Positions 45,707 through 63,839 are shown, counted from the stretch's first letter. The stretch: DNA of 64,000 bases from Alphaproteobacteria bacterium (GCA_045643605.1 JAZULC010000018.1:53700-117699); one strand, 5' to 3'. The notes: generated by a model from the letters alone, not told the origin. Numbers and translations are program-made.

Positions 45707-45782
45707 GCCGATTTAGCTCAGTTGGTAGAGCAACGCATTCGTAATGCGTGGGTCAGGTGTTCAAGTCACCTAATCGGCACCA
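45707..45782 (+). tRNA. tRNA-Thr (anticodon CGU), with CCA encoded
   Basis: Manual cloverleaf: acceptor GCCGATT/AATCGGC, D arm GCTC-AGTTGGTA-GAGC, anticodon arm ACGCA-TTCGTAA-TGCGT, T arm AGGTG-TTCAAGT-CACCT, then A-CCA. 76 nt. Confidence 0.95.
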
Positions 45783-45804
45783 GATTTTTCAAGGGTTTTG
45801 AGAG
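45734..45804 (+). repeat. attL-type direct repeat (tRNA-Thr 3' part plus 22 bp downstream)
   Basis: CGCATTCGTAATGCGTGGGTCAGGTGTTCAAGTCACCTAATCGGCACCAGATTTTTCAAGGGTTTTGAGAG matches 63769-63839 with one mismatch (G45765 versus A63800). Confidence 0.9.
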
Positions 45805-45824
45805 ATTTGACAATTTAGGATTAG

Positions 45825-45854
45825 AATTTTATCCCAGAATTGTCCCAAGATTTT
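45825..45854 (+). repeat. Island-internal 30-bp repeat, left copy (candidate integrase arm-type site)
   Basis: AATTTTATCCCAGAATTGTCCCAAGATTTT matches AATTTTATCCCAAGTCTGTCCCAAGATTTT at 63615-63644 at 26/30 positions. It contains two TCCCA half-sites 10 bp apart. Confidence 0.5.
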
Positions 45855-46184
45855 TCAAAACCCTCTACTTTTTACCTCTAATCAAAATCTATCTTTTATA
45901 TGTTTAAATGTTCTTCTGTTGAATTTTTATTCATCAGTATGATTAATTATATTGAAAATTAACATTAAAGTCAATATACGCTTAATATTTCATTGTAAAA
46001 AGGCATATTTATGCCTCAATTCTTATTTAATTATTAAAAAGCGCTTTACACGTTAGAGATGGTATGACTTTTTTAAATCCACTATAGATATAAGTAAATT
46101 TTTTTATTTTTTATCACATTCTACTCAAAATATTACAAAACCAATAGTTCTATTCATCAGAAGAAACATCTGAATGAGTGAACA

Positions 46185-47102
46185 ATGATGAAATCGGAAA
46201 AATCACAAAAACCTATTGTCAAAGAGAAAAGCAAAAGAGCCTTCAGCGCCTTCATAAATAATGTTTCTTGGTGGTGGAACGTAATAAATTTTGAGTTGGA
46301 TAATAGTTATATATATAAAAGAATTAAAACTGTTACGTATAAAAATGGGAAAACATCACAAATAATCACTCTTCCTAACGTACCCAGATGGAAAGATGTT
46401 ACCAGAGTACAAAAAGGTGCATATTTTGCCAAATTTTTAGCTGAAAGCAAAGAATTTTTGACCTTAAAACCATTTTCTTTGGATTTTACATATACATTAC
46501 ACGATAGATACTGTACAAACAAATTATCAGTGATACGGGATGAGTTCAGTAAAAAAATATATAATAATTTACGCCAGCATGGCAAACAACATATCGAGAT
46601 GGCGTATTGTATTGAAGGAAGAAGTAAAAGATTACACTGTCATGGTTTTATAGATAAAGAAAATTTGGGCGATTTTACGAATCTCTTGAAACAATCTGCT
46701 TGCTCCACTAGAAATGAATATAAAGAGATTAATTACAATAATATGCTTAAATTTTCTGAGTATTCTTATCAAAAAAGCGGTGGAAGTTATGGGTGGTACT
46801 GCTACATCCACAAAGGATCACACTCTGAAAATGCATTTCACCTTTCACATTCTTTATTGATTAGGATCCGAGATGAGTATGAAAAGCTTTATGAACAATA
46901 TATTGTAAGAATTAAACAACTGGAAGCAGAAGGTTTTAAAATACGTTACAAAGACGCTAAACAAAAAGAATATCATAAACGATTTAACATTTGGAAAGAC
47001 ATAGCAAGATTATATAAACAAACAAATACAATATTTAAATCATATATATCAAACACAAGTATTTATCATACGTATTTAATCAAACCACCACCGCTTATTT
47101 AA
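46185..47102 (+). CDS. Hypothetical protein, possible HUH-type Rep/relaxase (Inovirus Gp2/YfjJ-like?)
   Basis: 305-aa ORF. MAYCIEGRSKRLHCHGFI contains an H-C-H (HUH-like) motif, and a downstream WYCYIHK fits YxxK. The assignment is tentative. Confidence 0.45.
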   Translation: MMKSEKSQKPIVKEKSKRAFSAFINNVSWWWNVINFELDNSYIYKRIKTVTYKNGKTSQIITLPNVPRWKDVTRVQKGAYFAKFLAESKEFLTLKPFSLDFTYTLHDRYCTNKLSVIRDEFSKKIYNNLRQHGKQHIEMAYCIEGRSKRLHCHGFIDKENLGDFTNLLKQSACSTRNEYKEINYNNMLKFSEYSYQKSGGSYGWYCYIHKGSHSENAFHLSHSLLIRIRDEYEKLYEQYIVRIKQLEAEGFKIRYKDAKQKEYHKRFNIWKDIARLYKQTNTIFKSYISNTSIYHTYLIKPPPLI

Positions 47103-47210
47103 TATCTTATTATTGATAGTAAGCTATATTTTAGTTATTGCATATATCATTTTTGCAATTAAAATACAGACACGTAGTTACAATTAATATTATTTATGTC
47201 GAATAAATTA

Positions 47211-47519
47211 TTACGATTTTGATGCGAAAAAATTCAGAAGAATAGCATCATATCGTTTATTTTGGTTTCTTATTCTGGAGCTTAAAAAAGTAATCTGTGG
47301 TGTATGAGTTAAAACAAATTGAAATAGTTTGCATGAAGTACTCATTGATACAAGAACAGTTGTTTCATGTCCATAATACATAAACTGTTCATATGCTTTC
47401 TTTATGATTTCTTCTTTTCTTTTTTTTGAAACACCAAGTAGATTGATACAAGGACAAGAGGTTGAACTGTTAGAAGAATCTGTTGAAAATGAGTGAATAT
47501 ATGAATCAACCTCTTGCAT
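47211..47519 (-). CDS. Hypothetical 102-aa ORF of doubtful coding status
   Basis: It is the only ORF of at least 60 aa in an otherwise ORF-free ~970-bp stretch. No recognisable motifs or RBS were checked. Confidence 0.3.
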   Translation of the reverse strand: MQEVDSYIHSFSTDSSNSSTSCPCINLLGVSKKRKEEIIKKAYEQFMYYGHETTVLVSMSTSCKLFQFVLTHTPQITFLSSRIRNQNKRYDAILLNFFASKS

Positions 47520-48070
47520 TGTGGTTAAACCTATTAAAAAAATTGCCCTTGTACCTATATATAGAACTTAATTATTTTAGTGATTGTACCATTTATAAAA
47601 TTGGTACCAAGCAAATGTTTTTTATCTTCAAACTAAAATTTCGATGTTAGAAACAGACATCATTATAGAATCGTTTATTAAGGCTCACTGAGATAGTACT
47701 TCGATTTTTCATCATAAGTTAGATTTAGAATAATTTACCAGTGCACGCCCGATAGAACTGATAACCTCTGTGATATCCATATCTTAAAAATCCATAACAT
47801 ATAAGCAAAAGAAGTTTGTGTTATGTTATAGAACTTAATTTGATAAGTATCTTTCCCCATCCATCAACTTGCTACCAACATAAATGGTTTTAATCTATAG
47901 ATGGTTAAAGCTGAATGGATTGTATAAATAAGAGCTGAATAGCTTTTTGAAAGCCGCTGAGAGCATATTTTATTTTTTTGTATTGAGTACTACAAGAAAG
48001 AAAATAATCATCTATAGGAGCTTAAAAATACCGATGCTGATCTAAATATATCTAGAGCGAATGTATTTTA

Positions 48071-62309: not shown

Positions 62310-62312
62310 AAC

Positions 62313-62352
62313 AAAAAAAAGTCCAGAAACATCAAAATTTCTGGACTTTTTT
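62313..62352. terminator. Bidirectional terminator between the Xis-like gene and int
   Basis: A8-GTCCAGAAA-(8 nt)-TTTCTGGAC-T6. Confidence 0.7.
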
Positions 62353-62364
62353 ATATCAGACTAT

Positions 62365-63585
62365 TTAGGCAGCAATGTTGTTTATATTATCATTATCACC
62401 CAAATTTTTACTCATAACACTAATTGAAATATCAGCATCACTCATTTTATTCAATACAATTGCAGCACTCGATAAATTCTCTGGAGCCAGATGAGCATAA
62501 CGTTCTGTCATTCGAATACTTTTGTGTCCCATCAGTCTTTGTACAACATATAAAGCCACACCTTCTTGGACTAACCAACTAGCATATGTATGGCGAAGTG
62601 TATGGAAAACAACACGGTTTTTATCGTCTTTAATACCGTTATTCAATCCAAGATAATCGACTGCTCTGGCAAACGAATCTGATACCTCTTCAATTTTAGT
62701 ACCTTTTGTTGATTTAAATACATATTCACCATTTTGTAATGATTTTGCATTCAAAATACGACATACTTCATCCGTCATATTGGCAAAACGGTCTGAACCA
62801 TTTTTGGGATTACGTATTGCTATTTGTTTGGTTTCCATATTAACATCTTCACCCATTATATTAAAGATTTCACCAGCACGAAGCCCCATATGAAGTGAAA
62901 AGAGAGAGATTTCATACAACTGTTCACTACGTCTCCGTAATTCACTTAAAAGTTTTTTGGCTTCAACTGGTGTCAAAAAGCGTAATCTGTCATTGTTTAA
63001 CGTATATAATGTGAAATCGTCATACGGGTTAGTTCCAACAAATACTCCAGATTTTTTTGCACAATTAAAAATATAAGAAACAGTTACTATTGTTTTGTTT
63101 ATAGTTGCATTTGCTAATCCATCTTTCAGCATAGCTACGTTTACCTTTTTTAAATCACCAGATATAACGTCTTTTAGAGGTTTTTTACCAAATAATTTAT
63201 CATAGTATGTGTTGAAGTCGTGATTTTCCTGATTCTTTTTCTTTTCTTTCTTTTCATAAAGATAATTTTCCGTGTAACCTCCCAAAAACCATTCCCGAAA
63301 AGTCATAGATTCATTTCTTTTCTTGGTTTCCAATTCACGCTTTTCTCTTAATGATGTAGGATTTCCGTTTGCAAGTCTGATATTGCTTTTGATTTCGCAA
63401 AGAGTTTCCATCGCCTTAAGTTTAGTCATACCTTCTGAAGCCCAGCCTAAACCTTCTTCGATTCCTTTTTTATCTTTTTGATACCTGATTATATAATATC
63501 TATCTTTTGAAACGCCGTTTTTTCTTGTTTCGTGTTCTCTATAATAAACACCTTTATAATTTTTTGATTTAATGCGTTTTGGCAT
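62365..63585 (-). CDS. int: Tyrosine recombinase/phage-type integrase
   Basis: C-terminal catalytic blocks LRAGEI, HTLRHTYASWLV and GHKSIRMTERYAHL (R, HxxR, H, Y). 406 aa, located 183 bp from attR. Confidence 0.95.
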   Translation of the reverse strand: MPKRIKSKNYKGVYYREHETRKNGVSKDRYYIIRYQKDKKGIEEGLGWASEGMTKLKAMETLCEIKSNIRLANGNPTSLREKRELETKKRNESMTFREWFLGGYTENYLYEKKEKKKNQENHDFNTYYDKLFGKKPLKDVISGDLKKVNVAMLKDGLANATINKTIVTVSYIFNCAKKSGVFVGTNPYDDFTLYTLNNDRLRFLTPVEAKKLLSELRRRSEQLYEISLFSLHMGLRAGEIFNIMGEDVNMETKQIAIRNPKNGSDRFANMTDEVCRILNAKSLQNGEYVFKSTKGTKIEEVSDSFARAVDYLGLNNGIKDDKNRVVFHTLRHTYASWLVQEGVALYVVQRLMGHKSIRMTERYAHLAPENLSSAAIVLNKMSDADISISVMSKNLGDNDNINNIAA

Positions 63586-63614
63586 TGTTTTGATTCCTTT
63601 GTATTGTATGGAAC

Positions 63615-63644
63615 AATTTTATCCCAAGTCTGTCCCAAGATTTT
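63615..63644 (+). repeat. Island-internal 30-bp repeat, right copy (candidate integrase arm-type site, in the int upstream region)
   Basis: AATTTTATCCCAAGTCTGTCCCAAGATTTT. See the left copy at 45825-45854. Confidence 0.5.
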
Positions 63645-63768
63645 GGTTAAAACATATCAACGTAAATCATCACAAGTGCTCTTTTAAGGGATAATAACAA
63701 ATTGAGATGTCTACATTATTTAGAACATCTTTCAACACACAAAATCACAAATTTTTTTAATAAATCTT

Positions 63769-63839
63769 CGCATTCGTAATGCGTGGGTCAGGTGTTCAAA
63801 TCACCTAATCGGCACCAGATTTTTCAAGGGTTTTGAGAG
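63769..63839 (+). repeat. attR-type direct repeat (displaced tRNA-Thr 3' fragment)
   Basis: A 71-bp copy of 45734-45804 with an A at 63800. It lacks the tRNA 5' half, so it is not a functional tRNA. Confidence 0.9.

Follow-up and report, generated by a model that had tools for sequence, protein, structure and literature searches.

The window analysed here is a 64,000-nucleotide stretch of contig C18 (positions 53700-117699) from an Alphaproteobacteria bacterium, for which an 842 kb metagenome-assembled genome (MAG) is available that is 73% complete and has a guanine plus cytosine (GC) content of 32.2%. Positions 45783-63768 of the window very probably form an integrative genomic island belonging to a family, not described before, of uncultured gut and rumen Alphaproteobacteria, with an integrase that recombines the attachment site of the island (attP) with the tRNA-Thr(CGU) anticodon stem-loop. 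The island is integrated in the anticodon arm of the tRNA gene, which is rebuilt at the left junction (attL). It combines a conserved backbone with a variable slot, its family has spread between genera, the site is unoccupied in relatives, and elements are stacked in tandem. Related loci come from MAGs of uncultured Alphaproteobacteria, including one from goat rumen. Proteins were annotated with Pfam, PADLOC, NCBIfam and PHROGs, and folds were compared with Foldseek.

tRNA genes in the window were called with ARAGORN and Rfam. A single gene was found, an intact tRNA-Thr(CGU) at 45707-45782 on the plus strand (RF00005, 71.1 bits). A direct repeat at 45734-45804 and 63769-63839, with a spacing of 18,035 bp, is identical at 70 of 71 positions and contains tRNA positions 28-76 (49 nt) followed by 22 nt of trailer. 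The sole mismatch (G45765 against A63800) corresponds to tRNA position 59 in the T-loop. Over a wider span the plus-strand copies at attL (45734-45808) and at the right junction, attR (63769-63843), are 73/75 identical. The attR copy is a 3' fragment and was not called as a tRNA by ARAGORN or Rfam. The first-pass annotation had described this arrangement in the same terms, with an intact left tRNA, a right copy of 49 + 22 nt and a T-loop mismatch in a 71-bp repeat, and alignment and tRNA calls reproduced it in full. The repeat contains exact runs of 31 and 39 nt. The longest exact repeat in 20 Markov-1 simulations of the 64-kb window was only 16-20 nt, and a chance origin of the repeat is therefore excluded.

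The same annotation had taken the 71-bp repeat as the limit of the island. The repeat is real, but the recombination core is probably about 15 nt long and the 22-nt extension is island-type sequence. This was deduced by homology with G021, a genome from another genus of the same family, in which the island-type (P') and native (B') 3' tRNA halves diverge immediately after GCATTCGTAATGCGT, their only common stretch. To the left of GCATTCGTAATGCGT the P arm and the tRNA differ. Because only this stretch is shared, the crossover would lie within 15 nt of the anticodon stem-loop, at 45735-45749 and again at 63770-63784 (plus strand). At attL all sequence 3' of the core would then have arrived with the island, and the intact tRNA gene would be composed of a native 5' part and an island-supplied 3' part from position 44 onwards. 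The T-loop base fits such a supply; G59 at attL is common to the island-type copy in G021, and the A at attR matches the native tRNA of G021.

Conserved attachment arms adjoin both junctions. The P' arm (45783-45864, plus strand) is conserved in the P' arms of G021 and of loci L064 and L078, and comprises the 22-mer GATTTTTCAAGGGTTTTGAGAG, an inverted repeat (45792-45806 / 45850-45864) and a pair of arm-type sites, TATCCCA-N4-TGTCCCA, at 45830-45847. The P arm (63586-63768, plus strand) is 92% identical to that of G021 and conserved in L064, L071, L073 and L075. It contains a second arm-type pair (63620-63637) and a near-invariant block at 63700-63738. This block is a 39-nt non-coding segment with an imperfect hairpin (AGATGTCTA...TAGAACATCT). 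It carries 0-2 substitutions in five other islands with integrases 73-88% identical, a conservation above that of the integrase gene, and might serve in regulation or as a binding site for a protein.

The tyrosine integrase (406 aa, 62365-63585, minus strand) was identified by PF00589 and phrog_1 and aligned to XerA and HP1 integrase. Its sequence matches in the PDB include HP1 integrase (1aih, E 1.6e-9). The catalytic set is complete (R236, H328, R331, H354, Y363), and the ratio of non-synonymous to synonymous change (pN/pS) between window and G021 is 0.26. The protein is only 25-30% identical to characterised integrases. It belongs to a clade with 15 relatives (P0002-P0016) of at least 67% identity, with the next relatives at 46% or below. 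A scan of the viral contigs of IMG/VR with the integrase returned a single match, and the family is placed outside IMG/VR because this best viral-contig match is only 25% identical.

The integrase gene starts 183 bp inside attR and is convergent with a small open reading frame (ORF), as the first-pass annotation had noted and the PF00589 match and ORF coordinates bear out. The small ORF, ORF92 (92 aa, 62031-62309, plus strand), is a hyperconserved backbone protein that is 83-99% identical across six islands and has a pN/pS of 0.06 between window and G021. A bidirectional terminator with a 16-bp stem lies between the two genes (62315-62352). The earlier label of 'Xis-like' for ORF92 found no support in sequence or fold. 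No match was obtained in Pfam or PHROGs, even at E ≤ 10, and Foldseek gave no significant match (best E 0.25), with MerR-type proteins only among the weak ones; the model had a predicted local distance difference test score (pLDDT) of 66. From its position, size and extreme conservation, ORF92 is a candidate recombination directionality factor or regulator.

At the left end of the backbone lies ORF305 (46185-47102, plus strand); a homolog with 56% identity occupies the corresponding place in G021, and others adjoin tRNA-Thr in L078 and L082. Nothing significant was found for ORF305 in Pfam, PHROGs, NCBIfam, PADLOC, a PDB profile search or Foldseek. Its motif set resembles that of HUH Rep proteins (DFTYT; HCHG; YIHK). 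The family is tiny: of 1.84 billion proteins searched, 33 representatives reached E ≤ 0.001. T98 is nearly invariant and H153, W204, Y207 and K210 are invariant. Divergent members keep FTLxxS, HxHG and W..Y..K blocks, arranged and spaced as HUH motifs I-III usually are, with a canonical HxHG in most of these members, and three divergent members have sub-threshold matches to REP_ORF2-G2P or Rep_N. The nuclease domain of adeno-associated virus (AAV) Rep recurs among the weak Foldseek matches of ORF305 (E 0.09-0.5). In L064 the same position is occupied by ORF269, in which the FTL / HFH / YxxK signature is clear and which reaches 26.2 bits with REP_ORF2-G2P (cutoff 27.8). No homology between ORF269 and ORF305 was detectable by BLASTP or hhalign, and ORF305 against the L064-type Rep family was not significant by hhalign. 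Judged from these motifs, ORF305 is probably an HUH initiator or relaxase.

HP1 and P4-type integrases cross over in the anticodon loop of a tRNA gene; their attP carries the 3' part of the tRNA, and the gene is rebuilt at attL. The island resembles these systems in its anticodon stem-loop crossover and in having arm-type sites on both arms, and its target is tRNA-Thr(CGU) or, in one sub-branch, tRNA-Thr(GGU). In the proposed mechanism the integrase would bind the core and the arm-type pairs and recombine attP with the anticodon stem-loop of the target tRNA gene. The island carries its own tRNA 3' half and leaves the gene intact at attL, with the displaced 3' half remaining at attR. ORF92 might act as a directionality factor or repressor, and ORF305 might replicate the excised circle by a rolling-circle route or mobilise it. 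The backbone consists of the integrase, ORF92, the P and P' arms with paired arm-type sites and the left-end HUH-Rep-like gene, and defence genes fill a variable slot between them. Having neither capsid nor conjugation genes, the island would depend on a helper or on passive transfer to move from cell to cell.

The same integrase, ORF92 and attachment arms were found at tRNA-Thr genes in at least five other assemblies, with a different cargo each time: AbiE with ankyrin proteins, Type I restriction-modification (R-M), Type III-like R-M, or Fic. All members carry paired T(A/G)(T/C)CCCA-N4-T(G/A)TCCCA sites on both arms and the near-invariant P-arm block. The earlier description of a site-specifically integrated island is upheld by this recurrence of one module, with other cargo, at tRNA-Thr genes in other genera.

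In G021 the flanking MscS is 43% identical to that of the window, the integrase is 88% identical and the backbone DNA is 91% identical. Because the flanking protein of the hosts is only 43-54% identical, the backbone is taken to have been transferred after the hosts diverged. The G021 contig runs from MscS through an intact gene for tRNA-Thr(CGU), a prophage-like element (about 35 kb) and a window-type partial tRNA to a 7.9-kb island (island B), which is followed by a partial tRNA of G021's own type and then by the native terminator of G021. This island shares with the window the P' arm, the ORF305 homolog (56%), ORF92 (99%), the integrase and the P arm (92%), and its cargo consists of AbiEi/AbiEii and ankyrin-repeat proteins. 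The prophage-like element between the intact tRNA-Thr(CGU) and island B (L054:2430 to L055:17270) encodes a YopX-domain protein, a protein with a weak match to baseplate BppL_N, many small ORFs and its own 345-aa integrase (L055:16151-17188). Its presence at this tRNA-Thr(CGU) indicates that the tRNA serves more than one kind of element.

The remaining loci extend the range of cargo and of target. L064 (integrase 77% identical), an island of 9 kb also located at tRNA-Thr(CGU), encodes a DNA methylase and a ResIII helicase together with an ATPase of AAA_14/DUF4143 type, and L073 carries Fic. In L071, L075 and L077 (integrase 73-74%) the cargo is Type I R-M in L071 and probably also in L075, and the L077 contig is too short to contain it. 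The junctions of these three loci consist of a tRNA-Thr(GGU) 3' half with the anticodon loop TTGGTAA, followed by the native terminator. A matching attL was found in L078 at an intact tRNA-Thr(GGU), with the P' arm, an arm-type pair, an ORF305 homolog and a cargo of HsdR, RhuM and GmrSD. To judge from these junctions, one sub-branch of the integrase has switched to tRNA-Thr(GGU).

Unoccupied sites were found by the comparison with related genomes that the first-pass annotation had proposed. In seven relatives at genus and family level (G001, of the same genus, and G031, G009, G013, G034, G035 and G007) a tRNA-Thr(CGU) lies beside MscS with a terminator hairpin directly after it. The G001 contig stops about 290 bp after the tRNA and only the terminator is visible there. 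The other six showed neither a further tRNA fragment within about 9.5 kb nor an integrase. Their downstream genes are ordinary ones that encode MutY, an M23 peptidase, ferredoxins and rhamnan synthesis proteins and, in G035, an Mrr-type nuclease. The refuting outcome named in the first-pass annotation, with the same segment in all related genomes, was thus not observed at genus and family level. The G035 protein (L062:7068-9134, 688 aa) has an Mrr_cat restriction-endonuclease domain and lies directly downstream of the unoccupied tRNA-Thr(CGU), with no integrase or tRNA fragment nearby. At the sister tRNA in L027 (G034:C9), a duplicated 3' tRNA fragment (TTCTTACTAGCGGCACCA) and a second terminator are located about 190 nt past tRNA-Thr(GGU) and its terminator. 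The fragment, which looks like the scar of a past integration, adjoins a homolog of an aminoglycoside phosphotransferase (APH)-like kinase that flanks attR in the window.

The outer side of attR was compared with native sites and with other islands. Native sites have their terminator where attR of the window has the 22-mer GATTTTTCAAGGGTTTTGAGAG, a sequence that islands from three other genera carry in their P' arm, and no native terminator is present at 63818-63875. This segment (plus strand) consists of the shared 22-mer and a 36-nt 'type-2' arm and was assigned, by similarity to the left end of L082, as the left-arm remnant of a second, related element. The L082 contig begins inside a tRNA-Thr fragment and continues with an ORF305 homolog and AbiE cargo. 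An alignment of the outer flank of the window with this left end covers 88 nt and has 87.5% identity (E 4e-26). Past the 22-mer, 32 of the next 36 positions are identical to L082, with a score of 52 against 25.7 ± 3.0 for shuffled sequences (maximum 36). In a gapped alignment of the P' arm of the window with the outer flank, similarity was not significant beyond 26 nt.

On this sequence evidence attR abuts a variant left arm of an older element, and the present island entered a tRNA that this element had already rebuilt, a case of tandem accretion. The length of the 71-bp repeat is explained by this abutment. The older element is degraded; no Rep-like gene is present, and an APH-like kinase gene follows about 165 nt further on. 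The flanking APH-like kinase genes are 66-73% identical to genes of other genera and were not found in the same-genus genome, which suggests that they were acquired. Just past the two APH-like kinase genes, about 2-3.5 kb past the window end, a 501-aa cysteine-rich ORF (L003:2121-3626, G000:C18) stops about 30 bp short of the end of the contig.

Several observations weigh against the reading of the region as an integrative island. No transfer machinery was recognisable in the island. Searches of the island ORFs with Pfam, PHROGs and NCBIfam found no relaxase, coupling protein or type IV secretion genes, and no capsid, terminase, Sid/Psu-like or primase-helicase genes. Neither ORF92 nor ORF305 could be matched significantly to any family or fold. 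Metagenome contigs were scanned with exact patterns for the attR outer flank, as a marker of the empty or occupied site in the same species, and for the near-invariant P-arm block, as a marker of further islands or an attP circle, with 0 matches in each case. All three assemblies of the G021-type species (3/3) are occupied. The older element cannot be delimited because the MAG is 73% complete and the contig ends 3.2 kb past attR. GC content does not differ between the island (32.4%), the window backbone (31.8%) and the genome (32.2%). The composition check proposed earlier accordingly came out negative for GC and positive for tetranucleotides. The island has a tetranucleotide L1 distance from the genome mean of 0.160, the largest of all 18-kb segments, and 62 other 18-kb genome segments gave 0.085 ± 0.018 (maximum 0.145). 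Tetranucleotide composition thus marks the island and GC does not.

The empty metagenome scans bear most directly on whether the island, once acquired by site-specific integration, has become a fixed and immobile relic with negligible excision. No excision junction was found in the metagenome contigs and no polymorphism within a species, the occupied G021-type assemblies agree with fixation, and the neighbouring older element is clearly decayed. A relic is nevertheless rather unlikely, given att repeats that are still 70/71 identical, intact arm-type pairs in both arms that are conserved from genus to genus, and a backbone that is 91% identical between hosts with 43-54% identity in flanking protein. 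Integrase and ORF92 also remain under constraint (pN/pS 0.26 and 0.06), with all catalytic residues of the integrase present. Present-day competence for excision would be consistent with these intact residues, with purifying selection and with the intact arm sites. A single insertion into a virgin attB, with the 22-nt extension and flank being native trailer captured in attP and no second element involved, was considered improbable. It would suit the end of homology between P' arm and outer flank after 22-26 nt, and the assembled genome shows neither a second integrase of the family nor a third tRNA fragment. It does not accommodate the 22-mer in the P' arm of islands from three other genera, the terminator hairpin directly after the tRNA at native sites including that of same-genus G001, or the 32/36 match of the next 36 nt to an L082 left arm that is followed by an ORF305 homolog. 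Nor does it accommodate the flanking APH-like genes, with their 66-73% identity to other genera and absence from the same-genus genome.

Some features would also suit a phage satellite, whether P4-like or of the phage-inducible chromosomal island type, or an integrative conjugative or mobilisable element: the island is small, its integrase is convergent with a short ORF, and ORF305 may be an HUH Rep or relaxase. Defence cargo is likewise found in P4 hotspots (PMC9122126), and the G021 island adjoins a prophage-like element. The lack of the corresponding structural, replication and transfer genes in the searches above makes such an assignment unlikely, and the only PHROGs matches beyond the integrase are the radical-SAM protein and a marginal one for ORF102. 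If ORF305 is an HUH relaxase, the island might still be an integrative mobilisable element. An assembly chimera, joined at a conserved tRNA and carrying an island from another organism in the sample, was judged very improbable. The MAG is only 73% complete, the island is a tetranucleotide outlier and tRNA sequences are conserved among related species; on the other hand the two acceptor-stem halves at attL are complementary (GCCGATT / AATCGGC), where most relatives have GCCGGTT, and island GC equals that of the backbone. Even in a chimera, attR would show an island integrated in a tRNA-Thr gene. An integrative island inserted by its own integrase into tRNA-Thr(CGU) is the reading retained here.

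The cargo of the island, which had been described as almost entirely defence-type and arranged in two modules, was borne out as such by PADLOC, Pfam and NCBIfam matches, in which PDC-M41 and PDC-S05 are only candidate systems. Module 1 is a five-gene operon on the minus strand. It comprises a Type III Res-like helicase-nuclease (48071-51190; PADLOC REase_III E=3e-194; Pfam ResIII, PF04851), a radical-SAM protein of SplB/PA0069-like type (51190-51981; PF04055 E=2.3e-11, with weak matches to DUF5131 and PDC-M41B) and TcmP, a three-Cys-motif partner protein (51974-52810; TIGR04474 192 bits against a cutoff of 53; PDC-M41A E=7.8e-91). These are followed by a 1003-aa Type III Mod-like N6/N4 DNA methyltransferase (52813-55824; PF01555; PADLOC MTase_III E=5.8e-225) and an SNF2 helicase with a DrmD-like N-terminal half (55834-58677; PF00176, PF00271; PADLOC DrmD E=1.5e-191). 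Against NCBIfam DISARM_DrmD_b the SNF2 helicase scored 642 bits, under the cutoff of 950. With both a Mod methyltransferase and a Res helicase-nuclease, module 1 qualifies as Type III R-M, and SNF2, TcmP and the radical-SAM protein are three genes extra to canonical Type III systems. Literature on TcmP yielded passing mentions only.

Module 2 contains a RhuM-family protein, also matched as PDC-S05 (59411-60397, minus strand; PF13310 E=2e-111; PDC-S05 E=1e-174), and downstream of it three tandem small paralogous ORFs of 148, 131 and 130 aa (60408-61649, minus strand; repeat families D2 and D3). A RhuM gene with small ORFs after it (148 and 124 aa) was also seen beside a Type I HsdR at L078:15180-19112 and L080:14975-16427, and the combination may be a conserved sub-module of the island family. 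ORF159 (58826-59305, plus strand) has no match in Pfam, PADLOC, NCBIfam or PHROGs. ORF102 (47211-47519, minus strand), of undefined function, has no family match in Pfam, PADLOC or NCBIfam and a marginal one in PHROGs (E 0.005, a family of unknown function); at the DNA level it is 75% identical to part of L064. The radical-SAM protein matched PHROGs families of unknown function. Outside the island, the longest exact repeats of the window are one of 86 nt (27615-27700 / 28269-28354, spaced 654 bp) and one of 55 nt (28927-28981 / 28999-29053, spaced 72 bp).

In behaviour the island most closely resembles the tycheposons (Hackl et al., bioRxiv 10.1101/2020.12.28.424599), which are likewise small, cargo-carrying elements with a phage-type tyrosine recombinase, inserted at tRNA genes with partial tRNA copies on their flanks. 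Both are stacked with only a partial tRNA as separator, have degraded remnants deeper in, lack capsid and conjugation genes and occupy hosts with small genomes; family-level relatives of the present host have genomes of 1.2-1.9 Mb. Tandem stacking with partial tRNA copies was seen twice, at the junction of attR with the type-2 arm in the window and at the prophage-like element and island B in G021. The two groups differ in that primases, helicases and polymerases are the replication hallmarks of tycheposons; Pfam found no such hallmark in the island, where the only candidate is an HUH-Rep-like protein of a tiny family. Tycheposon cargo serves nutrient acquisition in Prochlorococcus, whereas the cargo here is defence in gut and rumen Alphaproteobacteria. 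A broader proposal can be put forward tentatively, namely that these islands are the first described tycheposon-like class of small self-replicating integrative elements in streamlined gut and rumen Alphaproteobacteria. Such a class would combine a new-family HUH rolling-circle initiator, a new type of 92-aa directionality factor and an isoacceptor-switching tRNA-Thr integrase, and would grow by tandem accretion and serve as the main defence shuttle between genera.

The six cargo sets follow the same pattern as the defence-carrying mobile islands at integration hotspots of E. coli (Hochhauser et al., 2023, PMC10121019); the present islands belong to another host phylogeny and integrase family and are not recognisable prophages, satellites, integrative conjugative elements or transposons. 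P4-like satellites (Rousset et al., 2022, PMC9122126) are also small integrase-borne elements that use a site of tRNA type and combine a constant backbone with a slot for changing defence genes, but the P4 hallmarks (alpha primase-helicase, Sid, Psu, Delta) were not detected in the island by Pfam or PHROGs. Pipolins (Mateo-Caceres and Redrejo-Rodriguez, 2024, PMC11551731) likewise integrate between direct repeats and combine a minimal core with a large defence-enriched cargo; their defining primer-independent PolB is absent, and Pfam found no polymerase domain in any island ORF. With their hallmark genes absent, the satellite, integrative conjugative element and pipolin readings were rejected.

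tRNA-linked integrative islands with defence genes are well known, and as a single finding this one is ordinary. Its value is practical and lies in a compact backbone with mapped attachment arms in poorly studied uncultured gut and rumen Alphaproteobacteria, together with six natural cargo variants. The family also provides a clear case of tandem accretion at a tRNA gene and of an integrase lineage moving between tRNA-Thr isoacceptors, and it contains, in ORF92 and ORF305, two conserved backbone proteins without a family assignment. The variable slot holds the Type III-like operon with SNF2, TcmP and radical SAM. With backbone and slot defined, the slot could be used to look for new defence systems in this group of bacteria.

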